Origin: an uncultured Lentimicrobiaceae bacterium
GTDB lineage: Bacteria; Bacteroidota; Bacteroidia; Bacteroidales; WCHB1-69
Assembly: GCA_964598505.1 (NCBI GenBank)
Contig: CAZRCF010000001.1
Span: 23,479-71,479 of the forward strand
Length of the DNA stretch: 48,001 nt
Direction of reading: 5' to 3'
The number at the start of each line of letters is the position of its first letter. Position 1 is the stretch's first letter. Below the pieces are notes generated by a model. That model was not told the DNA's origin and did not search any database. It was given only the letters and a program-made list of their open reading frames with translations. Position numbers and translations under genes: made by a program. Shown here in pieces: positions 3,260 to 30,688 of the stretch.

Positions 3260-3448
3260 ATGATTTCAATAAGTAAATTATTTGAAGATGCTAATGTTCA
3301 CGCAGAACATCCAAGTGGAATAGTGGCACCTTTTGGAATTATTAATCCGAGTGAAAAAAATAAAATTACTTTAGGTCAGTTTCAAAATATGAACAAGCTT
3401 GATCTCGATAGTCAGGCAAAAGAAATGAATAGACTTCGAGGCGATTAA
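3260..3448 (+). CDS. Small protein with MISISKLFE leader (putative head-packaged protein)
   Basis: AAGGA RBS; the N-terminus matches the repeated leader family. Confidence 0.6.
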   Translation: MISISKLFEDANVHAEHPSGIVAPFGIINPSEKNKITLGQFQNMNKLDLDSQAKEMNRLRGD

Positions 3449-3463
3449 ATAACTCTTTAGGGG

Positions 3464-5113
3464 GTGATAACAATTTATATTCACAACTTCTATGCCGATT
3501 TATTACTCTCCGTAAGAGTATTATTTGATAATCATATATTTCAAAATAGAGATTACGTAAAAAGATATGAGTTTAATATGGGCAATAGAACAATTCAATT
3601 GCCCAAAGATTATAAACCAAATTATGAGTTTCCAAATATAATTGTTACTCTTAATGATGATACTCCAAGTTATGGTCAACGTCCGGATGTGTCTCAAAAG
3701 ATATCAGGATTTAATTTAGATCAAATACCAGTTCTTTATAATCAGACAAATGGTGATGTTTTATGTGTTCAAGAAGAAATGGTAAATGTTCCTATTACTT
3801 GTACAATTAATTGTGAATCCCAGTTTCAAGCAAAAGAGATTGCCGCTATAATAAAAAGATGGTTACCAGTAAATAAGTTTATTACATTCTTACAATTTAC
3901 TTCGTATTTGGAAGTATCACAAGAATTCTTATCTACAAATCATTTTGATCCGGCAATTCATGTAATATCTAATCTTTATACTAAATTAAATCATAGAACT
4001 GGAGATATCGATTATTGTTATTCTTTACAATATGAACCTTTTATACGACTTGATTCAGTTTCAACATCAATTCCGGATTCAACTCAAAGATCATTTCAGG
4101 TATCTGTTGATATTACATTTATGATTCAACAACCATTATATATGTTCAATGATAGACTTCAGACACCGATGGAAAGGATCAATATTAATATTAATCCATT
4201 ATCTAAGTTTGAACCAATTAGTGATTTTCCAACTAGTAAAATGATTAATGGATTAAATGCTGATGTCGCAGAACTTAAAAAAGGTTTCATTAGAAGGACA
4301 TTTCTTGTAGTAGATAACAATGTTGTGGAAACTGTATTAAATTTGGATTATGTAGTTCTTACATCTGATCAAGTTACAAACACATCTACTGGTGGGCAAA
4401 ATATTGCTGCGACTAAAGGAGCTGATGATTTTATTTATATTACTTTAAGAACCAGCGAGACAAAATATAGAACAAATATGAATACAATTCCATCTCCTGA
4501 TGGAGTTAATATTGTATTAAGTACAGATGAATATTTGAAAGTAACAAAAGATCTTGCCGGTACAATAACAGTTATATTACATAAAATAACTCAGAGAATA
4601 ACAGTTCAATTTGCTCTAACGGATCTACAATTAACAACTGCATACTCGTACAATTTATTTAGCGGGAATAATATGTTGTTGGATTATGAAGATTATACAT
4701 TAGATACGACTGCTAATTCTGTTACATTTAGTTTTGATAACAGTCAATTTTCATCTTATACACCATCAACTACAAATCCTTTAATAGTTCAGTTCTGTTT
4801 GAAAGATATTCCAGATGCTAAATCTCCATATGGTATTCCACCAAAAGTTGGATTGATGAAAGTATTTAATATTTCTCAAATAGCGGCTGAAATAACTTGG
4901 TCTTCTGATGAGGAAACAACCACACAAGTAGAGTATGGAACTACTATAGAATATGGTGCTTTCTCATCTTTAAAAGAAAAACTTACAATTCTACATCATG
5001 TTGTTTTACCTAGTTTAGGACCAAATACAACATATCATTATCGGGTAAAAGTTACAAATTTAATAGGTGAAGAATATTTATCTGAAGATTTTAGTTTTAG
5101 TACTTTAGTATAG
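3464..5113 (+). CDS. Structural protein (possible neck/tail-terminator-like N-domain) with a C-terminal fibronectin-III-like domain
   Basis: The C-terminus AEITWSSDEETTTQVEYGTT...HHVVLPSLGPNTTYHYRVKV...SEDFSFST is an FN3/purple-acid-phosphatase-N-type pattern. The N-domain assignment is a guess from context. Confidence 0.5.
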   Translation: MITIYIHNFYADLLLSVRVLFDNHIFQNRDYVKRYEFNMGNRTIQLPKDYKPNYEFPNIIVTLNDDTPSYGQRPDVSQKISGFNLDQIPVLYNQTNGDVLCVQEEMVNVPITCTINCESQFQAKEIAAIIKRWLPVNKFITFLQFTSYLEVSQEFLSTNHFDPAIHVISNLYTKLNHRTGDIDYCYSLQYEPFIRLDSVSTSIPDSTQRSFQVSVDITFMIQQPLYMFNDRLQTPMERINININPLSKFEPISDFPTSKMINGLNADVAELKKGFIRRTFLVVDNNVVETVLNLDYVVLTSDQVTNTSTGGQNIAATKGADDFIYITLRTSETKYRTNMNTIPSPDGVNIVLSTDEYLKVTKDLAGTITVILHKITQRITVQFALTDLQLTTAYSYNLFSGNNMLLDYEDYTLDTTANSVTFSFDNSQFSSYTPSTTNPLIVQFCLKDIPDAKSPYGIPPKVGLMKVFNISQIAAEITWSSDEETTTQVEYGTTIEYGAFSSLKEKLTILHHVVLPSLGPNTTYHYRVKVTNLIGEEYLSEDFSFSTLV

Positions 5114-5125
5114 AGGTAATTAAAT

Positions 5126-5722
5126 ATGATTGCAATTACAAAAGTTTTATTTGAAATTATACCACAAACATTATATGGACAAATAGTTCCACCTGCAGTC
5201 AAAGGTGCACAAACAATTCAACAGAATCCTGCACCTAATATAACAACCGCTGCTAAAGGTTTAGTTAAACCATATACAAATACTGGTGCTTTAAAAACTC
5301 CTGCTGGATTTCCAGTTGCACAAGCTCCTGTTCAAGTTGCTCGAGCTGCTCCAGTAGTTGCACAGTCACAACCAGTTGTACAGGCTCCAGTTATAGCTCA
5401 ACCTCAGGTTCAAACAATACCTGCTCCACAAGTGACTGCTGGTGGTGTTCCGGTTCCTCAAGTTGTTGGGGGACAAAAAGCAGTTGAATCTGAACTTGCA
5501 CATAATGCAGAAGCAAAATCAGTTCAACAAAATGTTTCTGGATCACAAGCCACTGGAGAATTATTAAAAAGAGGGGCACAATCGGCTGGTGAAGCAGTTG
5601 GAAATATGGGTAAAAAAGTTGCTGAATTCGCACACGAAAGTCCATTGGCAGCTGGTATTGGTGCTGGTGCAATTGGTGCGCTTGGAATACGAAAATTAAT
5701 TAGTAGAAATAAACCAGCTTAA
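5126..5722 (+). CDS. Leader-bearing P/Q/V/A-rich protein with a C-terminal membrane-anchor-like segment
   Basis: MIAITKVLFE leader; C-terminus KKVAEFAHESPLAAGIGAGAIGALGIRKLISRNK. Confidence 0.7.
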   Translation: MIAITKVLFEIIPQTLYGQIVPPAVKGAQTIQQNPAPNITTAAKGLVKPYTNTGALKTPAGFPVAQAPVQVARAAPVVAQSQPVVQAPVIAQPQVQTIPAPQVTAGGVPVPQVVGGQKAVESELAHNAEAKSVQQNVSGSQATGELLKRGAQSAGEAVGNMGKKVAEFAHESPLAAGIGAGAIGALGIRKLISRNKPA

Positions 5723-5745
5723 AAATATTTTAAAGGAGAAGAAAC

Positions 5746-6291
5746 ATGCTTACAGAAGTAATAAGCAAATTAGATCGAGTCGTTTTAGAACTTGCTCTTA
5801 AAGATGCAATTTATGATATGTGTTTTTATGAGGGCGAAGAAATATCAAACATTCTTGAAAGTTACTTACAAAATGTAATTGCCAAAACAAATACAGAAGA
5901 ACAAAATACTATGTTTTTCGAATTAGCAATGCCTTATATTGAATCATCGATCATGGTATATGGTGCTGGTCTTTATGAAGGAACACCTGAAATGATTGCT
6001 CCTGCTGATAAAAATACAATGCAGCAGAAATTGGGTGGTCCTAAAGGTCCTTTGGTAGGAACTCAAATGATTGATAAGAATCGTGCATTGGTTCATAAAC
6101 TTCATGAATCTGAAGAAACTATTTGGGAAGATGTTGCAAAAATAATATTTGAAGAAGGAATTCTTGAAGCTGGAATTAAGAAAGCAAAAGGAAAAGGTAA
6201 GGGATTAGTATCCACAAAGTCTTCATTTGGAAAAAATTTACACTTTAAACTTCCAGAAGGTGGAACACCTAATCCTCCTGAAAACAAATAA
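5746..6291 (+). CDS. Hypothetical protein; N-domain paralogous to 16698..17360
   Basis: DAIYDMCFYE..ISNILESY versus DAFKDMCMYE..IIKILENY. Confidence 0.65.
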   Translation: MLTEVISKLDRVVLELALKDAIYDMCFYEGEEISNILESYLQNVIAKTNTEEQNTMFFELAMPYIESSIMVYGAGLYEGTPEMIAPADKNTMQQKLGGPKGPLVGTQMIDKNRALVHKLHESEETIWEDVAKIIFEEGILEAGIKKAKGKGKGLVSTKSSFGKNLHFKLPEGGTPNPPENK

Positions 6292-6314: not shown

Positions 6315-6659
6315 ATGAATCTTAATGAATTAATTTTAGAATCAATCAAAACAAGTATAAGTACTAAAAAAGATCAAACTTCAGTACAATATGGTGGAGA
6401 TAAGAAAGCATCTATTAAGGATGCTAATGTTGATAATAAGAACCAATCCTCACTTGAAGCAGGTCTTAAAGGAAAATTATCCAAGAATAACACAAATCCC
6501 CAAGGCGAAGGTGGTAAGGATCTAATTGCACGAAATCCAGATTTAGCAGCTATTGTTGCTGCTGCAGTTGCTGCTGTTCAAAAAGCAGGACAGGGATCAG
6601 TTCAAAATACCAATCCTTCGGTTCCTAAATTTACACCACCTGAGCCTGCGACTAAATAG
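6315..6659 (+). CDS. Hypothetical protein with MNLNELILES leader
   Basis: AAGGAG RBS; contains RNPDLAAIVAAAVAAV, a degenerate form of the ENPG anchor motif. Confidence 0.65.
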   Translation: MNLNELILESIKTSISTKKDQTSVQYGGDKKASIKDANVDNKNQSSLEAGLKGKLSKNNTNPQGEGGKDLIARNPDLAAIVAAAVAAVQKAGQGSVQNTNPSVPKFTPPEPATK

Positions 6660-6668
6660 GGGGTACAT

Positions 6669-7091
6669 ATGATTTCGATTGTTAAGTATATAAGTGAAGT
6701 TGGTGATTTTTCAACATATGCTCCAGAACAACAAGGTCCTTTAACAGGTGCTTATAAATATTGGACAGGTGGTAGAACAGGAGCAGATGTTAAAGAAATG
6801 GCAAAACGAGCTTCTGAAAAAACTGCTGGTGAATGGGCAGAGAGATTGAGAAAACATATGGCTACACACACTCCTGGAAATACTACAGGAGCAGCTGGTG
6901 ATATGTCTGGATCTGAAGCAGCTGGAATTGCTCTTAAAAAAGGTGCACAATCTGCTGGTGAAGCAGTTGGAAGTTTGGGTAAGAAAGCCGCTGAGTTCGC
7001 TGGCGAACATGCTGGTGCTGCTGGGCTGATTGCCGGTGGTCTTGGAGCGGCAGCTATACTTGCTGCTCGAAGGAAAAAAGCACAACAATAA
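6669..7091 (+). CDS. Leader-bearing tail-anchored protein, paralog of 5126..5722
   Basis: MISIVKYISE leader; shares LK(K/R)GAQSAGEAVG..GKK.AEFA.E, followed by a hydrophobic run and RRKK. Confidence 0.7.
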   Translation: MISIVKYISEVGDFSTYAPEQQGPLTGAYKYWTGGRTGADVKEMAKRASEKTAGEWAERLRKHMATHTPGNTTGAAGDMSGSEAAGIALKKGAQSAGEAVGSLGKKAAEFAGEHAGAAGLIAGGLGAAAILAARRKKAQQ

Positions 7092-7129
7092 AAATATTTT
7101 AATTAAAACCTAATGGAGGAAAAGTTTAT

Positions 7130-7417
7130 ATGAATATTCAAGAAATAATTGATAACTCTATCGATTCAGTAATCAAAGAAGATGTAAAAGAAGATGCTAA
7201 AGAAGCTGCTTCTAATATAAAAGAAAAATTAGTTTCTGCTGGTAAAAAAGTTGCCGAAGGTGCAGAAGATGCTGGTGAAAAAGCAAAAGGGATGGCAGCT
7301 AAAGTTGCTGAAATAGTAAAAGAAAATCCTGGAATATCTGCTGCTGTTGCTGCTTCTCTTGCAGCTGGTGTTGGTGCACTTGCATTAAGAAAGAAACTGA
7401 AGAGCGCTTCTAAGTAA
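7130..7417 (+). CDS. Tail-anchored ElaB/YqjD-like small protein (array member)
   Basis: K/E/A-rich helix followed by VKENPGISAAVAASLAAGVGALALRKKLK. Confidence 0.7.
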   Translation: MNIQEIIDNSIDSVIKEDVKEDAKEAASNIKEKLVSAGKKVAEGAEDAGEKAKGMAAKVAEIVKENPGISAAVAASLAAGVGALALRKKLKSASK

Positions 7418-7433
7418 ATATAAGGAGACAATT

Positions 7434-7775
7434 ATGTCATTAGATGTTAATAAGATTATAATGAGTTCTTTAGATGAAGTTGTTCTTTCTGAAGGTGTAA
7501 TTGACGATCTTAAAGATAAAATAGCACTTCATGGTATAAAAGATATAGATAATATTGAAGTTGCAAAAACTGGTGGCCATGCCGCTAAACTTTTATTTAA
7601 AGGTGGAGAACCGGAATTAGCTGCTGGTGTTGGTGCTAGAACCTTGAGAGCTCAAATTCAAGAGAATCCTGGTTTATCAGCAGCTGTTGTAGCAGCTCTT
7701 GCAGCTGGTGCTGGTGGTCTTGCACTCAGAAAGAAACTTAAAAAAGCTAAAGAAGCTAAGGAAAATAACGATTAA
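7434..7775 (+). CDS. Tail-anchored array member
   Basis: MSLDVNKIIMSS leader; IQENPGLSAAVVAALAAGAGGLALRKKLKK. Confidence 0.7.
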   Translation: MSLDVNKIIMSSLDEVVLSEGVIDDLKDKIALHGIKDIDNIEVAKTGGHAAKLLFKGGEPELAAGVGARTLRAQIQENPGLSAAVVAALAAGAGGLALRKKLKKAKEAKENND

Positions 7776-7786
7776 GGGAGATTATT

Positions 7787-8188
7787 ATGGCACTTGATGT
7801 GAATAAGATTATTGAAGAATCTCTCAAAGAAGCAAATGCACCTATTACAGAATCTTTACAAGGTGGTATGGAAGCCGCAAAAAGAAGTGGAAAAGCAGCA
7901 GTTGATATTTTTAGAGGTGGATCTAGTCAAGATGAAGCACAGGTTGGAGCAGATACTTTTGCTCAAGCAGCAAAGAAAATTGGTGAGGGTGAACCCGAAT
8001 CAATTGTTGCTGCACACTATCTGAAAAAGGCTAGTGCTGCTGCCGGTGAAACTGGTATAGGCTCAAAAATAGCTAGTATTGTAAAAGAGAATCCTGGAAT
8101 ATCTGCTGCCGCTGCTGCCGCTTTAGCAGCTGGTGTTGGTGCACTTGCGTTGAGAAGAAAGTTGAAGAAAATGAAGGACGCTAAATAA
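7787..8188 (+). CDS. Tail-anchored array member
   Basis: MALDVNKIIEES leader; VKENPGISAAAAAALAAGVGALALRRKLKK. Confidence 0.7.
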   Translation: MALDVNKIIEESLKEANAPITESLQGGMEAAKRSGKAAVDIFRGGSSQDEAQVGADTFAQAAKKIGEGEPESIVAAHYLKKASAAAGETGIGSKIASIVKENPGISAAAAAALAAGVGALALRRKLKKMKDAK

Positions 8189-8204
8189 TTACGAGGTAAT
8201 ATTT

Positions 8205-8633
8205 ATGACACTTGATGTGAATAAAATTATTAGTGAATCTATAAATGAAGTTATTACCGAAACATCAGGAGGTGCCGTTGCTGGCACTCTTCTTGGAGTG
8301 GGATCTACTATTTCGATACCATTACCAGGTAGTACAATAGCTGGAGGAATAGCTGGAGGAATGTCTGGTAGTAAATTATCAGAACATATGAAAACTCCAG
8401 GAGAAAAAATATCAGATGCCACAGAAGAAGCAAAAGAGAAATTAAAATCTGCTGGTAAGAAAATTTCAGCTAGTGCAGAAGATGTAAAAGATAAAGCAGC
8501 TTTAATGGGTAAAAAGATAGTTGATATTGTCAAAGAGAATCCTGGAATATCTGCTGCTGCTGCCGCTTTAGCAGCTGGTGTTGGTGCACTTGCGTTGAGA
8601 AAGAAATTGAAGAAAGCAAAAGAATCAAAATAA
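8205..8633 (+). CDS. Tail-anchored array member with an extra glycine-zipper segment
   Basis: MTLDVNKIISES leader; GGAVAGTLLGVG...AGGIAGGMSG; VKENPGISAAAAALAAGVGALALRKKLKK. Confidence 0.7.
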   Translation: MTLDVNKIISESINEVITETSGGAVAGTLLGVGSTISIPLPGSTIAGGIAGGMSGSKLSEHMKTPGEKISDATEEAKEKLKSAGKKISASAEDVKDKAALMGKKIVDIVKENPGISAAAAALAAGVGALALRKKLKKAKESK

Positions 8634-8664
8634 TAATCTAATTAATTTTTGGAGGAATAGAATT

Positions 8665-8964
8665 ATGTTTGAAAAAGTAAATGCATTGTTAGAATCAGAA
8701 GGTACGGAACTTGTTGAGAAACACGAAAATGTTATTGTGGAAGCAATGACTTTGGTTAATGATTTTCAGAAGAATATCAAAGCCTTCATTTTGAATAATC
8801 CTAGTGAGTTCATTGGTGAGAATACTGATGATACTTATAAGAATATGAGAGTATTCACAGAGGTAGCTTTATCTCAGTATGTTTCTGAAATATCTAATCT
8901 TTATGGTTCGGCTATTCAGGAACAAGTTGTAATCGAAGACAAGGGCCTTCAGGAATATTTGTAG
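8665..8964 (+). CDS. Hypothetical acidic protein with an NALLES leader
   Basis: GGAGG RBS; 99 aa. Confidence 0.65.
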   Translation: MFEKVNALLESEGTELVEKHENVIVEAMTLVNDFQKNIKAFILNNPSEFIGENTDDTYKNMRVFTEVALSQYVSEISNLYGSAIQEQVVIEDKGLQEYL

Positions 8965-8972
8965 GATTTTAT

Positions 8973-9248
8973 ATGACTATGAAATTTGATGCTTTATTGA
9001 ATGAAGTTGATCAAGATACTCTTGCGAGATTATCCGTTGCAGTGACGGCAGGTGTTATTTCTGCCGTCGCAGCAAGAAAATTATACAAGCAATATAAAGA
9101 TAATCAACTATTAAGAAAATATGGTGGAGCGCAAGAAGAAGATAAGCATCAAAGTCTTGGTAATGATCTTAGGAGTATAATTCCTGATTTAGTAGATATC
9201 AACGCTACAAGACATTTTATTGATGCTAAAAAACACATAGGTAGATAA
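8973..9248 (+). CDS. Small protein with a hydrophobic segment followed by RKLYK
   Basis: MTMKFDALLNE, then LSVAVTAGVISAVAARKLYK. Confidence 0.6.
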   Translation: MTMKFDALLNEVDQDTLARLSVAVTAGVISAVAARKLYKQYKDNQLLRKYGGAQEEDKHQSLGNDLRSIIPDLVDINATRHFIDAKKHIGR

Positions 9249-9252
9249 AACT

Positions 9253-9492
9253 ATGATAACTGTATCAAAATTATTTTTAATAGAAGAAGGAATATTTAAT
9301 TGGGCAAGAGGAAGTATAGGTAGCAGATTTAGTGGAAGTCGAGCAGCACAGATGAATCGATCTACACCAAGACCTTTAGAGACTGGTGCTGTAAAAGTAG
9401 AAAAACTTAAACAAGCACAATCTCCGATGGTAGAAGCTGCTCCGAAGAAGCCTGTTGGATTTGGTTTAAAACCATCTGGTATAACAACTTGA
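9253..9492 (+). CDS. Small basic protein with MITVSKLFLIEE leader
   Basis: The leader is followed by GIFNWARG; this is the last + strand gene before a convergent hairpin. Confidence 0.6.
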   Translation: MITVSKLFLIEEGIFNWARGSIGSRFSGSRAAQMNRSTPRPLETGAVKVEKLKQAQSPMVEAAPKKPVGFGLKPSGITT

Positions 9493-10867: not shown

Positions 10868-10872
10868 ATTTA

Positions 10873-16241: not shown

Positions 16242-16673
16242 ATGATATCAATAATTAAATATTTTAATAATCCAAATTTGATTTGTGAAACAACAGAAGA
16301 TATTCCAGTAAAAGATAAAACCTTTTTAAGATGTGCTGTTACTAAATTTTTTGCAGAAAATCCAAATCCTGATGATAATGATTTTCATGCTTTGGCCGAT
16401 AAATTGAAAATATCCCCGCATGAGCTAGAAGAGGTAGGATATGAACTACTAACTGGCTTATTAAAAGGTGTGGGTAAACATAAAGAAGTTCCTGTTACTA
16501 AATTTGATTCTGAACAGATCAAGATGGGACTTGAAGTAGAAAAAGAGCATACTGATTCACCAGCTATTGCTCAACAGATTGCGAAAGATCATCTGGCAGA
16601 GATTCCAGATTATTATACAAGATTAAAGAAGATGGAAGATGAAGCTAAAAAATCAATGGGTAAGAAAGACTAA
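16242..16673 (+). CDS. DUF5661-like protein with a leader
   Basis: MISIIKYF leader; C-terminal EQIKMGLEVEKEHT...IAKDHLAEIPDYYTRLKKME, recalled as the DUF5661 viral pattern. Confidence 0.65.
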   Translation: MISIIKYFNNPNLICETTEDIPVKDKTFLRCAVTKFFAENPNPDDNDFHALADKLKISPHELEEVGYELLTGLLKGVGKHKEVPVTKFDSEQIKMGLEVEKEHTDSPAIAQQIAKDHLAEIPDYYTRLKKMEDEAKKSMGKKD

Positions 16674-17379: not shown

Positions 17380-17709
17380 ATGATTAATGTAAGTTATCTT
17401 TTTGAAGCTCTTGCCGATAATAAAGTTTCTAAAGTTGAGGTCTCTAAAAACTATATAATTCAGGATTTAAAAGATAGACCTCCTGAAGAAGATATTGAAG
17501 CTTATCGTCGTAAAATTACATATGATAAGGATGGCAATAAACATATAATTAATCTTGCAATTCTTAAAGGTGGTGGCACTAAAGCTACTTCTGTTTGGCA
17601 TACTAAAAAGGAAGGTTCTGCAAGATCTATGTTGAGTCGAACAAAGAAAAATGATCCAGAAAAAGTTCATATAAAAGATGATCCAGAAGATGATCATATA
17701 AAAGGATAG
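17380..17709 (+). CDS. Hypothetical protein with MINVSYLFE leader
   Basis: Leader motif; AAGGA RBS. Confidence 0.65.
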   Translation: MINVSYLFEALADNKVSKVEVSKNYIIQDLKDRPPEEDIEAYRRKITYDKDGNKHIINLAILKGGGTKATSVWHTKKEGSARSMLSRTKKNDPEKVHIKDDPEDDHIKG

Positions 17710-17711: not shown

Positions 17712-17855
17712 ATGATAAGCTTAAGACGTTTATTTGAAGGATTCTTAACAGGATTTGAATATGATTATAATTCTAAGACAGAACCTTCTGCTAAAAACTT
17801 TTCAATGTCTAAGTTTTATAAGAATCTTCGACTAAAAAAGGTTATTAAAAAATAG
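17712..17855 (+). CDS. 47-aa basic peptide with MISLRRLFE leader (not in ORF track)
   Basis: MISLRRLFEGFLTGFEYDYNSKTEPSAKNFSMSKFYKNLRLKKVIKK; fills the gap between its neighbours exactly. Confidence 0.6.
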   Translation: MISLRRLFEGFLTGFEYDYNSKTEPSAKNFSMSKFYKNLRLKKVIKK

Positions 17856-18213: not shown

Positions 18214-18750
18214 ATGCTCTCTGTAGGATATTTATTTGAAGAAGCACTTATAGAAGAATCAATATATAGTGATACTAAAGACGCTCTTTCCAAATATTTT
18301 GGAATTTCTAAAGTCCAAGATTTTATAGACATTTCTAAAAAAGTAGTTAAAGATGGAATTAAAACACTTTCTATAAAAGAGCAAACGGTTTATAGAGGAC
18401 TATTTGATGATCCAGCTGTCAAAGACTATATTTCTGCCGCTCGACGAGCTGGTGAAAGAGATGGTTGGATAAGAGGTGGAATTGGTGGAGGACTCATTGG
18501 TGGTACAACAGGTGCAGCTACTGGAGGTATAATTGGAGCAGCCAGTGGAATGGGTGGTGGTGGAACTACTGCTATGTTTATTTCATTAGGACTTCTTGGA
18601 GCTGCCGCTGGAGGTGCTGCTATTGGTTGGACATATTCTAGAGTTAAAAGTCTTTTATCAAAATGGCAGGCAGAAGATGATGTAGTTGTATTGGGTAGAG
18701 TTGGCGGTAAAATTGGTCAGACTACTCCAATTGTTAAATCCGATATGTAA
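18214..18750 (+). CDS. Glycine-zipper membrane protein with a leader
   Basis: MLSVGYLFEE; GGIGGGLIGGTTGAATGGIIGAASG...LGLLGAAAGGAAIGW. Confidence 0.65.
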   Translation: MLSVGYLFEEALIEESIYSDTKDALSKYFGISKVQDFIDISKKVVKDGIKTLSIKEQTVYRGLFDDPAVKDYISAARRAGERDGWIRGGIGGGLIGGTTGAATGGIIGAASGMGGGGTTAMFISLGLLGAAAGGAAIGWTYSRVKSLLSKWQAEDDVVVLGRVGGKIGQTTPIVKSDM

Positions 18751-19334: not shown

Positions 19335-19529
19335 ATGAATACAAATAGTTTAGGTGTTGTTATATGTGAAATTATGGGAGATCCATTTTTTAGGAAGACT
19401 GATAATTCTGGTGGTAATCGTATAAGAAATATTTTTGGACAAAATAAAACAAATAAGGGTATAACTCCTAAGATGTCTTTGCCACCAATAAAAGATCTAA
19501 TCGAAAAGTTTAAAAATAGAAAGAAGTAA
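19335..19529 (+). CDS. Small basic protein with an SLGVVICE leader
   Basis: AGGAG RBS; leader similar to 21502 and 23970. Confidence 0.55.
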   Translation: MNTNSLGVVICEIMGDPFFRKTDNSGGNRIRNIFGQNKTNKGITPKMSLPPIKDLIEKFKNRKK

Positions 19530-19986: not shown

Positions 19987-20841
19987 GTGGCTGGAGGATC
20001 ATTAATAGATCGAGAATTTATTGGCACTATTTTACCGGCAAAAGATTCAGCACACCAAGGTAAATATAAAGTAAATGTTCCAGAACTTCAACCACATATG
20101 AAAGATTCAACTGGAATTTGGTGTAAGAATCATACTTGTAAGAATCGAGTAACACCATCTCAAAATGGTGTTTATGGATCTTACTACCCATTACATCCTG
20201 GGATATCAGTGATTGTGAAATTTTTTGCCAATCATATCGAATCAGGATATATTGATAGAATAATTTCAGACGCATATCCTGAAACTTTGCCGTATGAAAT
20301 AATTGAAAGAGATGATTATTATCAAATCATAAGAACACCAAAACACAATAATTTGATAGCAATATATGAAGGTGATTCTGCTTCTAAAAATGTACCAAAG
20401 AATTCAATTCATATTTATTATAATGAAACAAGAACAACCGTAGTAATTGATGAAACAGGAATTAATGTTAAAACCGATGATAATATTAATATCACTGTTG
20501 GAAAGAATTGTAAAATAACAGTAACTGGAACAGCAGACATTAAAGTGACCGGTAATACAAATATTGAAACTTCTGCTGATGCTAATATTAAAGCCGCTGG
20601 AAAAGTTAATGTTCAAGCTGGTGGTGATGCTAATGTTAAATCTGGAGCAAATTTAAATCTTGACGGAGGATCTGTTGTTAATATTAAAGGTGGATCAGCT
20701 ATTAATCTTCAAGCTCCAGCAATCAATATGAATGGAACAGCAGCAGCTGCGGGTACAGCTACCGCTGCAGCTCTTGCCGATCTTCCAACATTAATAACAA
20801 GAACAGATTATAAATACTTCACAAAAAGCGCAGGGAATTAA
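19987..20841 (+). CDS. Baseplate hub/central spike, T4 gp5/VgrG-like (OB fold plus beta-helix)
   Basis: N-terminal FIGTI...QGKYKVNVPEL...WC...GSYYPL.PG..VIVKF; C-terminal 8-residue beta-helix repeats (NITVGKNCKITVTGTADIKVTGNTNIE...); AAGGAG RBS before GTG. Confidence 0.8.
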   Translation: MAGGSLIDREFIGTILPAKDSAHQGKYKVNVPELQPHMKDSTGIWCKNHTCKNRVTPSQNGVYGSYYPLHPGISVIVKFFANHIESGYIDRIISDAYPETLPYEIIERDDYYQIIRTPKHNNLIAIYEGDSASKNVPKNSIHIYYNETRTTVVIDETGINVKTDDNINITVGKNCKITVTGTADIKVTGNTNIETSADANIKAAGKVNVQAGGDANVKSGANLNLDGGSVVNIKGGSAINLQAPAINMNGTAAAAGTATAAALADLPTLITRTDYKYFTKSAGN

Positions 20842-21501: not shown

Positions 21502-21777
21502 ATGATCAGTATTACGAAAAGTTTAGGTGCAGTAATTTGTAACAATTTAAACGAGGGTATATTAGATACAATTAATAGTAAACTTGTTAATTCAAAATTT
21601 GGTAAAGCAGTTGATAATATTAATGATAGAATAGACAAGTCATTGCAGAAGACAGCACCTGGTAGAGTATATATGGGACTTGAAAATAAAACTACTGACT
21701 TAGTTAATAAAGCTAGTAATAAACTTAGTAATTTAAATGATCAATTACATCGAAGGAATTTTAAAATAAGGAGATAA
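21502..21777 (+). CDS. Basic helical protein with leader MISITKSLGAVICNNLNE
   Basis: Leader nearly identical to that of 23970..24173. Confidence 0.65.
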   Translation: MISITKSLGAVICNNLNEGILDTINSKLVNSKFGKAVDNINDRIDKSLQKTAPGRVYMGLENKTTDLVNKASNKLSNLNDQLHRRNFKIRR

Positions 21778-21779: not shown

Positions 21780-21959
21780 ATGATAGCATTACATGAGATG
21801 TTTATTTATTCGATATCGAATTGGGGTGAGAAAACTCCACGATCAACTTATGAAACTGATGGAAAAAAAGATTGGTCGGTTATGAAAGATAGTAATCTCC
21901 TAATTAGAGATGAAGGAATTGAAACGTTCAATTCAGAGAATTCTAAGGCGGTGAAATAA
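21780..21959 (+). CDS. 59-aa protein (not in ORF track)
   Basis: AAGGAG RBS; MIALHEMFIYSISNWGEKTPRST...; fills the gap between its neighbours. Confidence 0.55.
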   Translation: MIALHEMFIYSISNWGEKTPRSTYETDGKKDWSVMKDSNLLIRDEGIETFNSENSKAVK

Positions 21960-21961: not shown

Positions 21962-22624
21962 ATGAATAATAAATTATTTGGAGCAGTAGTTGCTACTAAT
22001 TTAATTAATATTAATGAAGGCAATTTTGCTGATACTGCAAGAGCTGTTAATAAAAAATTACCTTCGGTTGTACATGGAGTAGGAAGCTTTGGTAGATATG
22101 TTGGAAATCAAATAGAGAAAGCTGGAAGTGGAATTAATAAATTTGGGAAAGATCCAAAAACAAAGTCTAAATATGGTGAAGTTAAGGGCACTTGGAATAA
22201 TATTTCTCAAACTTTAAAGAAAGCATCAGATGCAAGTGGTGGAGCTGCTCGTAAAATTGTAAGAGGTACTGGAACTGTTATTAAAAAAGCAGGAGAAGGA
22301 ATAGATTATGTTGGTAAACAACTTGTAAAGGGTGGTCGAAGATGGAATTTTTCTAGAAAACTTTCTGTCATAAATAAAAAAGAAGCTGATGAGAAACAGC
22401 AACAGAAAGAGCATGATAAAACATTAAAAGATCTTGAAAAAAAGAAAGAAGTATCAGAAAAACAAGTTGAAACAGATTTAATTCCTGATAAAGTTAAATA
22501 TAAATTTGGTCTTAAAAAGTCGGTTGATGAAGCAGAAACTCAAGCAAAAATAAAAGATATAAATAATCCTACTCCCACTCCTCCAAAGAGTAAATTTTCA
22601 CTAAAATTAGCTCCAAATCCGTAA
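21962..22624 (+). CDS. K/G-rich helical protein with a LFGAVVATNLININE leader
   Basis: Amphipathic basic repeats and a coiled-coil C-terminus. Confidence 0.65.
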   Translation: MNNKLFGAVVATNLININEGNFADTARAVNKKLPSVVHGVGSFGRYVGNQIEKAGSGINKFGKDPKTKSKYGEVKGTWNNISQTLKKASDASGGAARKIVRGTGTVIKKAGEGIDYVGKQLVKGGRRWNFSRKLSVINKKEADEKQQQKEHDKTLKDLEKKKEVSEKQVETDLIPDKVKYKFGLKKSVDEAETQAKIKDINNPTPTPPKSKFSLKLAPNP

Positions 22625-23969: not shown

Positions 23970-24173
23970 ATGATTAGTATTACGAAAAGTTTAGGTGCAG
24001 TGATTTGTACTAGCTTAAATGAAGGATTCTTAGACACTATTAAGAATAAAATAAAATCAACCACATTAGATAATAAAGAGAAACAGACAGCCCATGGAGT
24101 AATTGGTGATCATAAAAATGCAGAGAAGAAAATTCTAATGTTGGGGTATATTAAAAATCTGAAAAGAAAATAG
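23970..24173 (+). CDS. Small basic protein with leader MISITKSLGAVICTSLNE
   Basis: AAGGAG RBS; leader paralogous to 21502. Confidence 0.65.
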   Translation: MISITKSLGAVICTSLNEGFLDTIKNKIKSTTLDNKEKQTAHGVIGDHKNAEKKILMLGYIKNLKRK

Positions 24174-24710: not shown

Positions 24711-25313
24711 ATGATTTCCATTATAAGGGCTGGAATTAACCCTGAACAATCGTCTGGAAGTCGGTGTATGAATGGTTTAGAGGATGATACATCTGAAGAA
24801 CCTGGTATCAAAAGTATTAAACGCATTATTATTATTAAGAAAATAGATCCGGAAGAATTTGAAGATAGGGAGAATGATATGGATAAAAACGAAGAAAAAA
24901 TTGATATGTCTCCAGAGGAATTAGATGATGCCGAAAACGATCTTCCACCAGAGATAGATAATATGTCTATGGAAGAACTTGGTTTAGATGATTCTGATCT
25001 TGATGATATTGATGATGAAAACTCAACCGATAATGAAGGAGAAGATATGACAGAAGAAGAATTGAAAGCTCTTGAAGCGGATGTTCCTCCGGAAGTACAC
25101 ACCATGAAAGATGAAGATCTTGAAGGTGATGAAGATCTTGACGATGATGAAGTTCCCGAGGGTGAATTAGCCGAAAAAGATAAAATAGACGAAAAAGATA
25201 AAGCACCCGAAGTTAAAGTAGATAAAGATGATCTTGATGAAGATATAGATCTGGATGCTAAAGTCGATAAGAAAAAAGACAAGAAAAAGGATGATATGGA
25301 TGACTACCTCTAA
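24711..25313 (+). CDS. Highly acidic low-complexity protein with a MISII leader
   Basis: About 78 of 200 residues are D/E (hand count); AGGAGG RBS. Confidence 0.7.
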   Translation: MISIIRAGINPEQSSGSRCMNGLEDDTSEEPGIKSIKRIIIIKKIDPEEFEDRENDMDKNEEKIDMSPEELDDAENDLPPEIDNMSMEELGLDDSDLDDIDDENSTDNEGEDMTEEELKALEADVPPEVHTMKDEDLEGDEDLDDDEVPEGELAEKDKIDEKDKAPEVKVDKDDLDEDIDLDAKVDKKKDKKKDDMDDYL

Positions 25314-25521: not shown

Positions 25522-26919
25522 ATGGCTAGAGCCAAAAAAGAAGAAACAAGTAACACATCTGTAAATTTAGATTCATCTCAATTTGATGCAGCACCCGTAG
25601 ATTTTGCAGAGAAGTTAGGAACTGCATTTGATCACGTTATAACATCACAATATGGTTACGCGAGAGCTCCAAAACCGTATATTACGCCTTTTGGAATTCA
25701 ACACTTAGACGCCTTGTTGGGAGGCGGTATAATATCTTCAGCACCTGTTGTTCTGAGTTCAACTCCGGAAACAGGTAAGTCAACTTTTGCTTTTCAGTTT
25801 GCCAAAACATTTCAGACGCTTTATCCAAATTCAATTACTGTTTATTTGGATGTTGAAGGAGCAGCTAATGCTTCCGGATCAGTAGGGGCGGATGGTGTTG
25901 CTAATAACGCATCAAGAATGCAGATTTTTGCAATTGATGAAAAGAGATTTCGTTACGAACCAATTATTATTGACATATATGGTTTCTTTAATATGATTGA
26001 AACTTTAGTTGGAATTAAGAAAGCATTTGAAGAGAAGTTACAGAAAGAGTTTAAGATAATGATTATTTGGGATAGTATCGCTGCAACACCTTGTTCTAAA
26101 CTTGCAGAGGTTGATGATCCAAATCGCATAATCGGATTACGAGCTCGTCAATTATCTTTTTGTATTGAAAAGTATGCACCCTTATTAGCATACAATCGAA
26201 TTACTTTCTTAACAATAGATCAGGTTCGTGCAAATCTTCAGTTAGAAGGGCAGTATGTTGCGAAAGAGAAATCTGTGGGAACATGGAATGATTATAAAGC
26301 TGCATCATCTATTATAGCTTTTAATCATAAAGTTGGTCAATGGTTATTTCTATCGAGAAAAGCAGCCATTAATCCAAGTGATGGAATGGGAATTACTGGT
26401 TGGTATTTGGGAATATATACTGAGAAAAATAAACTTGCACCATCACAGGAAGCAATTACGTGTGTATTTGATAAGCGGACAGGTCTTCATAAGTTCTGGA
26501 GTGAATATACTTTCATGGCAGAAATGACAAGATCTGAATTAAAGTATTTTAAAGAAGAAAAGAATCTTTGTTATCCGTTAGCAATACGCAAGTCCGGTCC
26601 ACAGGTTCATCTTGAATTTATAGATCCAATTACTGGAAATACGCAATATAAATCTGATAACTTTTATCGAAAGAATGCTCTCGATAAATATAATTCAGAT
26701 GAAGAATTCAAAAAAGCATTTGACTATGTCATGTCCATTTCTGCCGAACAACGAATTACAAATGGATTATTTCAATTACGAAATACTGGAGCAATTGAAG
26801 TTAGTGTAGCTCCTGATGAAATCTTAGATGATATTAGTACTCCTCCTGAGAGTGAAATTACTGGTGAAATAAAAGCTGAAGAAAAACCGGAAGTAACATA
26901 TGAGTCAGTATTTAATTAA
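25522..26919 (+). CDS. uvsX: RecA/UvsX-like recombinase
   Basis: PFGIQHLDALLGGG, Walker A STPETGKS, VYLDVEG, Walker B IIWDSIAA, GLRAR, IDQVRAN, KNKL. Confidence 0.85.
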   Translation: MARAKKEETSNTSVNLDSSQFDAAPVDFAEKLGTAFDHVITSQYGYARAPKPYITPFGIQHLDALLGGGIISSAPVVLSSTPETGKSTFAFQFAKTFQTLYPNSITVYLDVEGAANASGSVGADGVANNASRMQIFAIDEKRFRYEPIIIDIYGFFNMIETLVGIKKAFEEKLQKEFKIMIIWDSIAATPCSKLAEVDDPNRIIGLRARQLSFCIEKYAPLLAYNRITFLTIDQVRANLQLEGQYVAKEKSVGTWNDYKAASSIIAFNHKVGQWLFLSRKAAINPSDGMGITGWYLGIYTEKNKLAPSQEAITCVFDKRTGLHKFWSEYTFMAEMTRSELKYFKEEKNLCYPLAIRKSGPQVHLEFIDPITGNTQYKSDNFYRKNALDKYNSDEEFKKAFDYVMSISAEQRITNGLFQLRNTGAIEVSVAPDEILDDISTPPESEITGEIKAEEKPEVTYESVFN

Positions 26920-27883: not shown

Positions 27884-27886
27884 AAC

Positions 27887-28132: not shown

Positions 28133-28140
28133 ATTTTAAA

Positions 28141-28174: not shown

Positions 28175-28189
28175 TGGTTGTTCATAAAT

Positions 28190-28228
28190 TATATAGAAAT
28201 TATAAATTCTCTGATTTCATATAGAAAT
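28190..28228 (+). promoter_or_regulatory. Two YATATAGAAAT motifs upstream of the Cas4-like gene
   Basis: TATATAGAAAT at 28190-28200 and CATATAGAAAT at 28218-28228. Confidence 0.6.
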
Positions 28229-28278
28229 AATAGAAGATATAATTTTTATTTAATTAATAATCGACCCGGAGGCAATAA

Positions 28279-29274
28279 ATGACGCAGTTCAATGATTTAA
28301 TGAAAATGTTAGAAGTATCAGATTTTAATTCTACTCAAGTAGTTGCACAAACAGAGGAAGTTCCACAACCAATTTTTCCGAAAGAAGAAACGCAATCAAT
28401 TGAATCTTCTTATGAGATCTTGCCGAATCTTCCAACAGATTACGAACCATTTAATATTGATAAATTTACTAAAGAACTTTACGAAAAGTCAGCCGTTAAA
28501 AATCAATTGTACAGAGAATCAATTCAGAATATTAGTGCATATGATATTTCATCTGGATGTATAAGAGAGATTATTTATAAATTAAATAATACACCAGTGG
28601 AGTCTTTTGCCGATAAATGGTTACCTATATTAATGAGATCAACAATAGGAACTGCAATTCATGAATTTATTCAAAACAATACTAATCAATTTACTGAAAG
28701 AGAAGTTTCTTTAAAGATTCCATCAATTAGATTCTCAGGAAGATTAGATAATCTAATTGGTCCAAATATGTTAATTGAAATTAAAAGCTGTCCATATTCA
28801 GACTATGAGAAAATCATATCAACTAGAAAACCAAGGCTTACTGACTTTTATCAGTCAATGACCTATAAATATATTTTAGAAAATTATTTAGAAGAAGCAA
28901 GAGATCCGAAAATTAAAGTTCGAAGAGGAACATTAAAACCTAAATTTGATAAATATGATATTAAAACAATTCAATTCATTTATGTTGCTCATGATGTAAC
29001 TGCGACGGATGTAGATTCTTTTGGAGAGATTTTAGAAAGAATTAAGCAATTAAAACGTTTACTTAATTCTAAATCTAATTCATTCTTCTTTATAACTACA
29101 ATGACTGTAGATGTTACAAATGGAGTTGCTGCTCCATTTCTTGAGTATGTTGATAATAAAATTAAAGCTATAAATGATTATATGAATAAACAACAATTGC
29201 CAGATTTAAGTGATCCTTATGTGGATAAGAAAAGTTGTTTCTTTTGTACTTATTCTAGGATATGTGGCAAATAA
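28279..29274 (+). CDS. Stand-alone Cas4-like PD-(D/E)xK exonuclease with four putative Fe-S Cys
   Basis: SAYDISSGC, GTAIHE, SGRLD, IEIKS, Q...Y, C-terminal CFFCTYSRIC. Confidence 0.8.
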   Translation: MTQFNDLMKMLEVSDFNSTQVVAQTEEVPQPIFPKEETQSIESSYEILPNLPTDYEPFNIDKFTKELYEKSAVKNQLYRESIQNISAYDISSGCIREIIYKLNNTPVESFADKWLPILMRSTIGTAIHEFIQNNTNQFTEREVSLKIPSIRFSGRLDNLIGPNMLIEIKSCPYSDYEKIISTRKPRLTDFYQSMTYKYILENYLEEARDPKIKVRRGTLKPKFDKYDIKTIQFIYVAHDVTATDVDSFGEILERIKQLKRLLNSKSNSFFFITTMTVDVTNGVAAPFLEYVDNKIKAINDYMNKQQLPDLSDPYVDKKSCFFCTYSRICGK

Positions 29275-29319
29275 GATTAGAGGAGAAAAAGAATTAATGG
29301 AAAGAGGATTTTAAAATAA

Positions 29320-29355
29320 TTTATTCCCAGAAGTTTAAACACTTCTGGGAATAAA
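29320..29355 (+). terminator. Intergenic perfect hairpin
   Basis: 15-bp stem TTTATTCCCAGAAGT / ACTTCTGGGAATAAA, loop TTAAAC, with a T-rich run shortly after. Confidence 0.7.
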
Positions 29356-29379
29356 AATATTTTTTGTTTAGGGGATTTT

Positions 29380-29538
29380 ATGATTTATATAAAGCCAGAT
29401 TATTGTGCTGATCAAGATTTAATATGTTTAAAATGTGAACTTTTTAAAGATAATAAATGTTCATTATTAGAAGAGCATATTGAAACATTACAAAGAGTTA
29501 ATGATCGAAAGAAACTAATAAAAGAGGATAAATTATGA
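29380..29538 (+). CDS. 52-aa Cys-containing protein (not in ORF track)
   Basis: GGGGA RBS; MIYIKPDYCADQDLICLKCELFKDNKCSLL...; ATGA overlap with the next gene. Confidence 0.55.
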   Translation: MIYIKPDYCADQDLICLKCELFKDNKCSLLEEHIETLQRVNDRKKLIKEDKL

Positions 29539-29990
29539 TTAGTTTAAGCTATTTGTTTGAGCAAGAAGAATCTACTAAAGGGAAATATAAAGTCCCTATG
29601 ATTGAGAAATTAAAAACTCATAAATTAAATCCTAAAACAAATAGGATGAAAAACTTTAGAACTCACAAATATTTATTTACAGATATCCCACCGGAAGAAA
29701 GAACTACTAAAAATCTTCCAAGATATTCAACTAAAAAAGCTAAAGTTCGTTTTCAAGATTGGTTAATGATTGATGCCAAAAAGAGACAACCAGATCATAA
29801 TAGTTTAAGTTGGGGTTGGTCTTCAAATGGAAGTTGTTATGGATGGTCACATAGAGCAATGTATGGTTTTAAAATTGGTGACACTGTAAAATCAGATACA
29901 ATTGGAAACGAAGGTGGAAAAGAATATGTAATTAAAACAAAAGAACAAGCAGAAGAAGCTGCTAAAAAATTTGCAGATGGAGTTAGCTAA
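29535..29990 (+). CDS. Basic hypothetical protein with MISLSYLFE leader
   Basis: Leader; YGWSHRAMYGFKIGD motif. Confidence 0.65.
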   Translation: MISLSYLFEQEESTKGKYKVPMIEKLKTHKLNPKTNRMKNFRTHKYLFTDIPPEERTTKNLPRYSTKKAKVRFQDWLMIDAKKRQPDHNSLSWGWSSNGSCYGWSHRAMYGFKIGDTVKSDTIGNEGGKEYVIKTKEQAEEAAKKFADGVS

Positions 29991-30688
29991 TGATGAAACT
30001 TTCTTATTTATTTGAAAATTCAAGACAAGCTGGAAAAACTACACAAGCTATGGTTGATCATTTTCAGAAGAGAACAAATTTCCATATTGAATTAGTAAGA
30101 AAATATCTTCAAAAGATTATAGATCTTAATGATTCTAGACTTGATAATTATATATTAGAAAAAGAAAAAATGCATGATCAAAGTAAATTTAAAGAACCTG
30201 AATTATCTCCTTATATTATTTTAACATGGTCTTATCATCAGAAAGATCTAAATAAGAAATTTAATCCTTCAGAAGATATTAAAACTAAGATGCAAATTGC
30301 GAGTTTTCACCATGTTAAAAATAATGAACATCATGTAGAAGCATGGGACGAAAATTCTAAAGTTGATTCTATAAATCGAGCAGATAGAGACACACCACCA
30401 GAAAAGATAGTTGATGGTACTAAAATGCCTTTAACTTATGTTGCTAGTATGGTCGCGGATTGGTGTGCAATGTCTGAAGAAAAAAAGACATGTCCATATG
30501 AATGGGCAAAAAAGAATATTAACGTTCGTTGGAAGCTCAATAAAGAACAAGAGAAATTAATCTATGATCTTTTAGATAAGATCTGGGAAAATAGTTGGGA
30601 GGGGGAAAGTTTTAAAACACATCAGATAAGACTGATGAATAAATGCGAAATTAACAGGAGGATTAAATGTCCGCAAAAAAGAAAGTAG
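29990..30688 (+). CDS. DUF5662/HD-like protein with a KLSYLFE leader
   Basis: HDQSKF..PE, HHVKNNEHH, MPLTYV..MVADWCAMS. Confidence 0.6.
   Translation: MMKLSYLFENSRQAGKTTQAMVDHFQKRTNFHIELVRKYLQKIIDLNDSRLDNYILEKEKMHDQSKFKEPELSPYIILTWSYHQKDLNKKFNPSEDIKTKMQIASFHHVKNNEHHVEAWDENSKVDSINRADRDTPPEKIVDGTKMPLTYVASMVADWCAMSEEKKTCPYEWAKKNINVRWKLNKEQEKLIYDLLDKIWENSWEGESFKTHQIRLMNKCEINRRIKCPQKRK

Follow-up and report, generated by a model that had tools for sequence, protein, structure and literature searches.

Fifteen genes in the 48,001-nucleotide stretch of contig CAZRCF010000001.1 that is analyzed here (the window) begin with variants of one short leader, MISI-x-YLFE, joined to otherwise unrelated proteins. 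The window belongs to an uncultured jumbo phage (205 kb), as its proteins occur on the 205,069-bp ENA metagenome contig ERZ27262927 k141_123413, on a 97-kb JGI contig, and on Logan contigs. The leader, or tag, is best explained as a capsid-targeting propeptide like that of phage T4, which would be cut by a prohead protease of the gp21 family. We consider this explanation, which the initial annotation had put forward, to be probable. Judged from sequence, it is supported by the modularity of the tag, by the invariance of its L-F-E end, by the finding of a gp21-family protease in related phages, and by the lack of the tag on tail, replication and packaging proteins.

The principle is already known from the capsid-targeting sequence (CTS) of T-even phages (PMC3012670, PMC9026906) and from the processing of phiKZ-like head proteins after Glu (PMC5694885). 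New here are the sequence of the tag, its near-invariance across a clade, its scale, and a cargo that includes recognizable enzymes and a Tad6-like protein.

A leader shared by unrelated proteins

All fifteen of the initially listed N-termini could be read back from the DNA (Table 1; genes are named by their first position). The fifteen ATGs have an AGGAG- or GGAG-type Shine-Dalgarno site 6-10 nt upstream and an in-frame stop 1-7 codons upstream, and are therefore taken as real starts. The motif M-I-[SATN]-[ILV] is found at 13 of 57 initiator methionines and at none of the 279 internal methionines of the same proteins (Fisher p = 2.8e-11). In a six-frame scan, the plus-strand matches to MI[SATN][ILV] were all at the starts of open reading frames (ORFs), the only two other MI matches lying in stop-interrupted frames of the minus strand. 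The codons used differ among the copies (Ser TCA/TCG/TCC/TCT and AGT/AGC; Leu TTA/TTG/CTT; Ile ATT/ATA/ATC; Glu GAA/GAG), indicating selection on the peptide and not on the DNA. A DNA repeat or a promoter as the cause is ruled out by this variation.

The leader is less uniform than was first described. Its full form, M-I-S-x-x-[YK]-L-F-E, is present in only 9-11 of the 15 proteins, and the rest deviate: 16242, 21502 and 23970 have a longer leader with an I-C-E or L-N-E end at residues 16-18, 21780 shows MIALHE only, and 24711 shows MISIIRAG without a nearby [LI]xE. An [LI]xE is found within 12 residues in 11 of the 15 and at residues 16-18 in three more, leaving 24711 as the one failure. A sixteenth copy, MISIIKYLSE, begins a 90-aa protein that is encoded shortly beyond the end of the window, behind the SLT gene (L001:17862).

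When 80 non-redundant leaders were anchored on the Glu, the logo read M-I-S-[IVL]-S-Y-L-F-E, with Leu (74) or Ile (4) at P3, Phe at P2 in 70, and Glu at P1 in 80/80. Conservation collapses after the Glu, the P1' position being spread across Q/E/N/S/A/G/V. Most of these leaders have 9 residues (61 of them), the others 10 (16) or 11 (3). The N-terminal half alternates hydrophobic and polar residues, with I2, I4, Y6 and F8 on one face, and is followed by the invariant L7-x-E9 end. The leader seems to be two-part (MISI and [LI]FE), with further classes of leader that also end in [LI]xE.

The proteins behind the tag are as diverse as had been claimed, the 16 tagged proteins forming at least 14 BLASTP families. 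Pfam assigns four of the bodies, to Peptidase_C39 (18760), the Tad6-like family (29535), DUF5662 (29990) and DUF5661 (16242); the others are small basic proteins, the very acidic 24711, the glycine-zipper-like 18214, and 5126 and 6669 with their Gly/Ala-rich stretch and basic tail. The protease, glycine-zipper-like, acidic and basic types named initially are all present, but the term "HD-like" could not be confirmed for the DUF5662 protein, which had no match in the PDB by sequence profile or by Foldseek (best E 0.98, TM score <0.25).

Several of these bodies keep their leader in other phages. The 3260 orthologue in another phage (L011) retains the tag (MISISYLFENPNVQSEHPSG), and the orthologues of 29535 begin MISLSYLFEQ, MISLNCLFEQ, MLSLYYLFER, MIALTNLFEQ or MISITYLFES, those of 29990 MMKLSYLFEN, MLNISYLFEN, MLSVNCLFEN or MLSIGFLFED. 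The 17380 family is the cargo family that is spread most widely in metagenomes (17 distinct members sampled). The protein 5126 ends in a Gly/Ala-rich hydrophobic stretch followed by a basic tail, and its body is paralogous to that of 6669. The 24711 protein consists largely of D/E-rich repeats and may mimic DNA or serve inside the head to balance charge; its orthologues retain MISIIR.G and likewise have no nearby [LI]xE. The match of 29535 to PF25188 (53 bits, cutoff 27) places it with a Pfam family of ThsB-binding Thoeris inhibitors, and in one relative the syntenic slot of this gene is filled by an unrelated 150-aa protein (L017:9222).

In two independent families, DUF5662 and C39, sequence comparisons indicate that the tag is a detachable N-terminal module. 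Of the 114 clusters found in a database search with the DUF5662 protein, the nearest (at least ~55% identity) nearly all have M[ML][ST][IL]xYLFE followed by a linker of ~12 residues, whereas distant homologues have no tag and start at the body (..M.DHF..RTN.HI.LV). A few homologues carry variant leaders (MRLNNYLNE, MRTIDRYLSE, MKPYSPLFE). Among 36 tagged DUF5662 representatives, L7 is conserved in 97% and F8 and E9 in 100%, equal to the invariant His and Asp residues of the body. Similarly, 20 C39 clusters have M[IL]S[VI][SA][YF]LFE[NT]K-LDFPT, while the next five (P0260-P0264) start MI[IK]LDFPT and hence have the same body without the leader. In AlphaFold2 models of both proteins the tag lies outside the predicted fold: residues 1-10 of the confident, all-alpha DUF5662 model have a predicted local distance difference test score (pLDDT) of 52, as compared with >90 for the body and 87 overall, and residues 1-7 of the C39 model are <50, again with >90 for the body, and 84.8 overall. 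The C39 model matches 6mpz and 3k8u in Foldseek (E 6e-8, TM score 0.82-0.84), confirming a double-glycine-peptidase fold. With its invariant residues H32, H62-D63, H108, H114-H115, D157 and E164, DUF5662 may represent a new metal-dependent enzyme fold. In one DUF5662 homologue (P0001), the region of leader plus linker is duplicated in tandem (MMKLSYLFENARQAGKTTQVMIEFSYLFENSRRAGKTTQAM...).

The recognizable replication and assembly enzymes were said to lack the leader, and indeed TerL, UvsX and the MoxR ATPase are all untagged, as are the tail fibres, the gp5-like hub, the tube-like protein and the Cas4-like nuclease in the window, and DnaB, the class II ribonucleotide reductase (RNR) and an RNA polymerase (RNAP) beta'-like protein in relatives. 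This distribution of the tag among genes is the pattern expected for head-resident proteins. No leader matches were found in 45 kb of a T4-like Flavobacterium phage, taken as a control.

The spread of the leader was followed with a 27-nt degenerate pattern for M-I-[S/T..]-I-[S/T..]-Y-L-F-E, which found 6 sites in 4 IMG/VR contigs (48-285 kb) and 65 metagenome contig stretches, several of them on contigs of 150-285 kb and many with 3-6 tagged genes at one locus. Of 37 strict MISISYLFE matches, 29 have an upstream stop no more than 20 codons away, and in the window and its relatives the leader matches are at most 14 codons from one. Pooled, there are 107 distinct tagged proteins in 48 body families. 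In a relative (L009), the tag is carried by a genuine HD-domain cargo. Contigs of this kind are present in samples from anaerobic digesters, sludge and sediment. A 29-column leader profile run against 1.84 billion representative proteins gave 5 matches at E <= 0.001, of which three were to homologues of proteins in the window and two to repetitive proteins; a 9-residue motif is too short for that library. At one locus of the 285-kb relative (L009:4858-9791), three tagged genes, one of which encodes the HD-domain protein, lie beside a class II-like RNR (902 aa) and a 592-aa protein that resembles, by eye, a fragment of a multisubunit RNAP beta' subunit.

Head genes of related phages

Two relatives, a 285-kb IMG/VR phage (L025) and a 117-kb NCBI contig (L027) from a metagenome-assembled genome (MAG), share their gene order with the window from UvsX as far as TerL and further on, with identities of 60% for TerL, 61% for a 613-aa protein and 51% for a 780-aa protein. 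The window and the flanking DNA that was read hold no head module. In both relatives, such a module lies ~8-15 kb past TerL and contains, in this sequence, a portal (684-702 aa; Portal_T4, weak), a small, acidic, scaffold-like protein (134-162 aa) directly before the protease, the prohead protease (254-258 aa), and the major head protein (528-535 aa; phrog_20655). The module was also seen in three more distant relatives. The protease matches phrog_207 (3e-15), Pfam Peptidase_S80 (26.8 bits, cutoff 23.4) and, weakly, Peptidase_S77, and it is related to T4 gp21 in BLASTP (4e-10, 26% over 182 residues). Because portal, protease and capsid genes are found in these relatives, the lineage, as read from its genes, has a T4-type head assembly with a gp21-family protease. 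The relationship of the capsid protein to gp23 rests on Pfam Gp23 matches in 5 of 39 family members together with PHROGs; an hhalign comparison of the capsid family with the single T4 gp23 sequence was not significant.

The head proteins themselves have related N-termini. The acidic protein begins MLLVEVLFE, MFLCEILSE or MLVFE, each followed by Q, and the protease begins MAKIPIRKYNFIFE followed by T, ..KRYNFIFE followed by R, ..NYYFIFE followed by Q, or MQTGILFE followed by Y. The 120 capsid-protein clusters among the matches listed start M-x(1-6)-[LI]FENYE.F, with E7 invariant and F6, N8 and Y9 at 90% or more. None of these 120 matches could be assigned to the 205-kb contig, and a search for related loci with the window's 780-aa protein found no relative.

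About 20 clusters of capsid homologues (P0198-P0220) reach a length of only 295-306 aa, which corresponds to the N-terminal 55-57% of the protein. The major capsid gene may thus be interrupted in many relatives by an intron, an intein or an endonuclease insertion. In the 285-kb relative (L025:12160-15195), a DnaB-like helicase is split into parts of 296 and 328 aa by a 267-aa HNH-type ORF, and the helicase of L027 is one 640-aa gene.

Destination and fate of the tagged proteins

If the tag functions as a T4-like capsid-targeting propeptide, its N-terminal half (M-I-S-I-x-Y), with alternating hydrophobic and polar residues, would anchor the protein in the scaffold core of the prohead during assembly, and its [LI]-F-E end would be the cleavage site of a gp21-family (S77/S80) prohead serine protease that cuts after Glu. 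Cleavage would free the mature protein within the head, and the cargo would exit with the DNA at infection. The cargo would comprise small basic and acidic proteins, Gly/Ala-rich membrane-type proteins, the C39 and probably the M48 peptidase, the putative metalloenzyme DUF5662 and the Tad6-like protein, as well as an HD phosphohydrolase in relatives. The physical packaging, cleavage and ejection of the tagged proteins is what we infer from these patterns.

The closest parallel is the CTS of the T4 internal proteins (IPs) IPI, IPII and IPIII and of Alt, which is cut by gp21. It is likewise an N-terminal element of ~10 residues counted from Met1, it likewise ends in [LI]-x-E, and it is likewise common to otherwise unrelated proteins. 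IPII and IPIII begin MKTYQEFIAE followed by A, as compared with MISISYLFE here, and IPI has a 19-residue leader ending in ITE followed by A, the length of the CTS ranging from 10 to 19 residues (PMC9026906). In this element, targeting is the task of residues 4 and 7, and processing that of residues 8 and 10 (P3 and P1) (PMC9026906). All characterized proteases of the gp21/gp175 family cut after Glu (PMC5694885). The [LI]FE found near the N-termini of the lineage's head proteins is paralleled by the [LI]xE of T4 head proteins (gp67 MEGLIE, gp21 MNEPQLLIE, gp22 MLKEQLIAE, gp24 MAKINELLRE), and the lineage's head genes are of gp17, gp20, gp21 and gp23 type, as in T4. In T4, too, the ip genes are dispersed among genes for non-structural proteins. 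The small basic proteins of the cargo and its candidate anti-defence protein recall T4 IPI*, an injected restriction inhibitor (PMC3012670).

There are also differences from T4. Beyond the [LI]-x-E end there is no sequence similarity between the tag and the T4 CTS; the tag is near-invariant over a deep clade of uncultured jumbo phages, in which capsid identity falls to ~50%; and the cargo includes recognizable enzymes (C39 peptidase, HD hydrolase, DUF5662), unlike that of T4. As to scale, the 16 tagged genes in ~68 kb and the at least 48 cargo families of the lineage compare with three IPs plus Alt in T4. The scale is thus larger, as initially proposed, but the contrast with T4's three IPs was overstated, given that T-even phages carry varied internal proteins that share only a CTS (PMC3012670, PMC9026906).

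Other known systems fit less well. The phiKZ-like phages (phiKZ, 201phi2-1 and SPN3US, with the S80 proteases gp175/gp245) are likewise jumbo phages with many candidate ejection proteins and a protease of the same superfamily. Their cleavage motif is [S/A/G]-x-E, their propeptides are often longer than 100 residues with no common leader, and in SPN3US only 8 of ~50 head proteins are processed (PMC5694885). The tag does not belong to this propeptide class, having Leu or Ile at P3, as in T4, and a 9-mer that is shared. In encapsulins, a short terminal peptide also directs unrelated cargo into an HK97-fold shell; these cargo-loading peptides are usually C-terminal and uncleaved, and they bind the shell directly in a cellular nanocompartment that involves neither DNA nor ejection. 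The double-glycine leaders cut by the C39 domains of PCAT/ABC exporters are also short N-terminal leaders on diverse small proteins, and a C39-fold peptidase is encoded here, but the boundary of the tag is L-F-E, without the Gly-Gly (or Gly-Ala/Ser) that directly precedes the cut in such leaders. By inspection, the 9-mer is unlike a Sec, Tat or lipoprotein signal, which has a basic n-region, a hydrophobic core of 10-20 residues, and an A-x-A site or a lipobox. A literature search found no paper that mentions DUF5662 and none that describes such a leader in jumbo phages.

A number of points weigh against a cleaved, capsid-targeting propeptide. The phage is known from metagenomes only, and its own protease and capsid genes are placed by synteny with two relatives. 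The resemblance of the capsid LFENYE to IFENQE in T4 gp23 is by eye only, and IFENQE lies inside the 65-residue delta piece, away from the mapped maturation site, so that LFE could serve for scaffold binding and not for cleavage. No LFE is found within 12 residues in 16242, 21502, 23970 and 24711, the last of which has no [LI]xE of any kind there; the MISI and LFE parts may therefore be separable signals. Tagged genes adjoin the RNR and RNAP genes in a relative and tail and baseplate genes here, and gene context is thus not head-specific. Finally, [LI]xE alone is a motif of low information.

Some of these points would suit a tag that targets the prohead and stays uncut, mimicking the N-terminus of the capsid's delta domain (M-x-x-x-LFENYE) and binding the same scaffold or core partner. 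We regard this as unlikely. It would account for the [LI]FENYE.F starts of capsid proteins across the lineage, for Asn being the commonest residue after the Glu in DUF5662 and C39 leaders, and for the position of the gp23 look-alike in the delta piece, off the mapped cleavage site. Nevertheless, conservation ends exactly after the Glu and leaves P1' free, a pattern more in keeping with a scissile bond than with a longer helix used for binding. The P3 (Leu or Ile) and P1 (Glu) positions are those that direct processing in the T4 CTS (PMC9026906), and the protease itself bears NFIFE near its N-terminus, as T4 gp21 bears LIE-9.

Less likely still is that the tag addresses another destination, such as the tail lumen or baseplate, a membrane, or export, and is processed by the phage's own C39 or M48 peptidase. 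Consistent with such a role, tagged genes flank the gp5-like hub gene, C39-fold and M48 peptidases are encoded in the window, and several bodies have Gly/Ala-rich hydrophobic segments. However, the tag does not end in Gly-Gly, neither the Pfam and PHROGs scans of window genes nor the precomputed gene calls revealed an ABC transporter, and the 9-mer is unlike export signals. The C39 peptidase carries the tag itself, which argues that it is cargo and not the processing enzyme, and the homologues without a leader identify the tag as an addition to this body. The invariant boundary Glu suits the specificity of the gp21 family. T4-type tails are not known to use propeptides.

The poorest account is that the shared start acts in translation or regulation (as an mRNA signal in the 5' coding region, or as a nascent peptide that tunes expression) or offers recombination a handle by which gene cassettes are exchanged: the tag does sit exactly at the start codons of tightly packed genes in an AT-rich genome, and one syntenic slot does hold different bodies, Tad6-like here and unrelated in a relative, but the DNA is unconserved (Ser TCN and AGY, Leu TTR and CTN), conservation is at the level of amino acids, with L-F-E invariant in homologues down to ~55% identity, and L-F-E recurs close to the start of the head protease, of the scaffold-like protein and of the capsid protein, which makes this account highly improbable.

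More tentatively than for the capsid-targeting propeptide as such, it is possible that an uncultured jumbo-phage clade preloads its capsid via one universal 9-residue tag that copies the scaffold-binding N-terminus of the capsid protein, with a large, exchangeable cargo that acts upon injection. If so, at least 48 cargo families would be involved, an order of magnitude beyond T4, and they would include a Tad6-like inhibitor of Thoeris (ThsB), metal-dependent HD and DUF5662 enzymes, C39 and M48 peptidases, an acidic protein resembling a DNA mimic, and Gly/Ala-rich proteins that insert into membranes. The tag would then be a natural and portable signal for loading into the capsid.

Were the tag a capsid-targeting propeptide, N-termini alone would reveal the ejected proteome of an uncultured jumbo-phage lineage, which usually requires a cultured host and virion proteomics. 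Dozens of unknown families, along with DUF5661, DUF5662, Tad6-like, C39, M48 and HD proteins, would be flagged as acting in the first seconds of infection and would be prime candidates for anti-defence and host takeover. Delivery of a finished Thoeris inhibitor together with the DNA would be a novel form of counter-defence, the T4 CTS principle would extend well beyond T-even phages, and a second, very short tag would become available for tests of loading foreign proteins into capsids. Even if the proteins are uncleaved or unpackaged, the tag remains a strongly selected, modular N-terminal signal on about a quarter of the genes of the region.

Further leaders and genomic surroundings

Leaders that end in [LI]xE are not limited to the MISI type. 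An [LI]xE ending at residues 5-14 is found in 26 of the 57 window genes, as compared with 10.4% in equal windows inside the same proteins (p = 1e-11). A second class, with the consensus M-x-[LF]-[DN]-x-[NE]-x-[IL]-[IL]-x-E (MNLNELILE, MALDVNKIIEE, MTLDVNKIISE, MFEKVNALLE, MDFNELLLE), resembles the T4 gp24 propeptide (MAKINELLRE). It is found on seven small genes and on the M48 peptidase, an orthologue of which begins MEEFKELIFE followed by VS. Four of the second-class genes (7130-8205) have a common C-terminal segment, ENPGISAA...GALALRKKLKK. Six paralogues (5126-5722, 6669-7091 and 7130-8633) end in a Gly/Ala hydrophobic stretch of ~20 residues followed by residues of the RKKLKK type (for example, ENPGISAAVAASLAAGVGALALRKKLK). 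This C-terminal segment looks like a tail-anchor transmembrane segment, and the proteins may be membrane-inserting ejection proteins.

A third variant, ..[LF]G[AV]V[IV][CA]..[LI]xE followed by G, is found in 19335 and 21962 and in the second half of the 21502 and 23970 leaders. The small basic proteins with this variant form a cluster directly behind the gp5-like hub gene. The variant, which follows a MISI prefix in some of them and stands alone in others, is conserved in relatives (L017:1039-1661; L019:1843-2733).

Table 1. Positions of the tagged genes, the further leader classes and other annotated genes of the window
Position	Strand	Length (aa)	N-terminus	Product or features
3260..3448	+	62	MISISKLFE, then D	
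5126..5722	+	198	MIAITKVLFE, then I	Pro/Ala/Val/Gln-rich, isoelectric point (pI) 10
6669..7091	+	140	MISIVKYISE, then V	C-terminal Gly/Ala hydrophobic stretch and basic tail, as in 5126
9253..9492	+	79	MITVSKLFLIE, then E	Basic, pI 10.7
16242..16673	+	143	MISIIKYFNNPNLICE, then T (long leader)	DUF5661 body (PF18905, 1e-18)
17380..17709	+	109	MINVSYLFE, then A	
17712..17855	+	47	MISLRRLFE, then G	Basic, pI 10.1
18214..18750	+	178	MLSVGYLFE, then E	Glycine-zipper-like, Gly-rich hydrophobic segment
18760..19317	+	185	MISISYLFE, then N	C39 (double-glycine-type) cysteine peptidase (Pfam, 1e-15)
21502..21777	+	91	MISITKSLGAVICNNLNE, then G (extended leader)	Basic
21780..21959	+	59	MIALHE, then M (partial tag)	Orthologues MISIMES, MIAIHEM, MIALNEI
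23970..24173	+	67	MISITKSLGAVICTSLNE, then G	Basic
24711..25313	+	200	MISIIRAG	Very acidic, pI 4.1
29535..29990	+	151	MISLSYLFE, then Q	Tad6-like C-terminal domain (PF25188, 5e-14)
29990..30688	+	232	MMKLSYLFE, then N	DUF5662 body (PF18907, 1.6e-22), invariant His/Asp
6315..9248	+		Second leader class	Seven small genes: 6315, 7130, 7434, 7787, 8205, 8665, 8973
19335..19529	+	64	MNTNSLGVVICE, then I	Basic; third leader variant
21962..22624	+	220	MNNKLFGAVVATNLININE, then G	Basic; third leader variant
793-1797 and upstream			No tag	Tail fibres
9548-12051	-			MoxR-type AAA ATPase (phrog_1297) and DUF2201 protein pair
19987..20841	+		No tag	gp5-like baseplate hub (phrog_13211, 4e-10); sits among tagged genes
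25522..26919	+		No tag	UvsX-like recombinase (phrog_97, 1e-29); negative control
28279-29274			No tag	Cas4-like nuclease
32774..33655	+		MDFNELLLE, then VS (second class)	M48 metallopeptidase (PF01435, 6.5e-10)
37864-38991			No tag	Tail-tube-like protein
42474..44441	+		No tag	Large terminase TerL, gp17-like; synteny anchor to the head module of relatives
Extends past window end		1923		SLT-domain protein

The window is AT-rich (GC 29-37%) and coding almost wholly on the plus strand. TerL is 23-27% identical to that of Shewanella, Flavobacterium and Escherichia T4-like phages (a distant gp17, T4-type relationship), and it was the sole match in a phmmer comparison of all ORFs collected with Flavobacterium phage immuto, for which head, tail and TerL proteins were used. 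A megablast search of 17 kb against INPHARED gave no matches, so no cultured phage there is alike at the DNA level, and tblastn searches for cultured relatives with the DUF5662 and Tad6-like proteins gave none either. As only TerL has distant T4-type matches, there is no cultured relative with virion proteomics.

The MAG labels were rejected as a guide to the host, being mutually contradictory. Contigs of the lineage have been binned as Nitrospiraceae, Clostridium, Bacteroidetes, Geobacteraceae, Neomarinimicrobiota and Chloroherpeton MAGs (loci L095-L103), and these contradictions suggest that such assignments are probably mis-binned phage DNA.

The only minus-strand genes of the window are the MoxR/DUF2201 pair and a 126-aa ORF (30895-31275). 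The partner of the MoxR ATPase is a VWA-like DUF2201_N/DUF2201 protein and a putative metallopeptidase. Sequence searches of the PDB with 13562, 33675 and 29535 returned nothing useful. Two adjacent paralogues, 13562-14995 (477 aa) and 15025-16179 (384 aa), belong to phrog_8198 and share the N-terminus ..FYLEV.KGN. Another pair of paralogues, 5746-6291 and 16698-17360, has the common N-terminal motif KD[AM]..MC[FM]YE, and each of the two adjoins a cluster of tagged genes.

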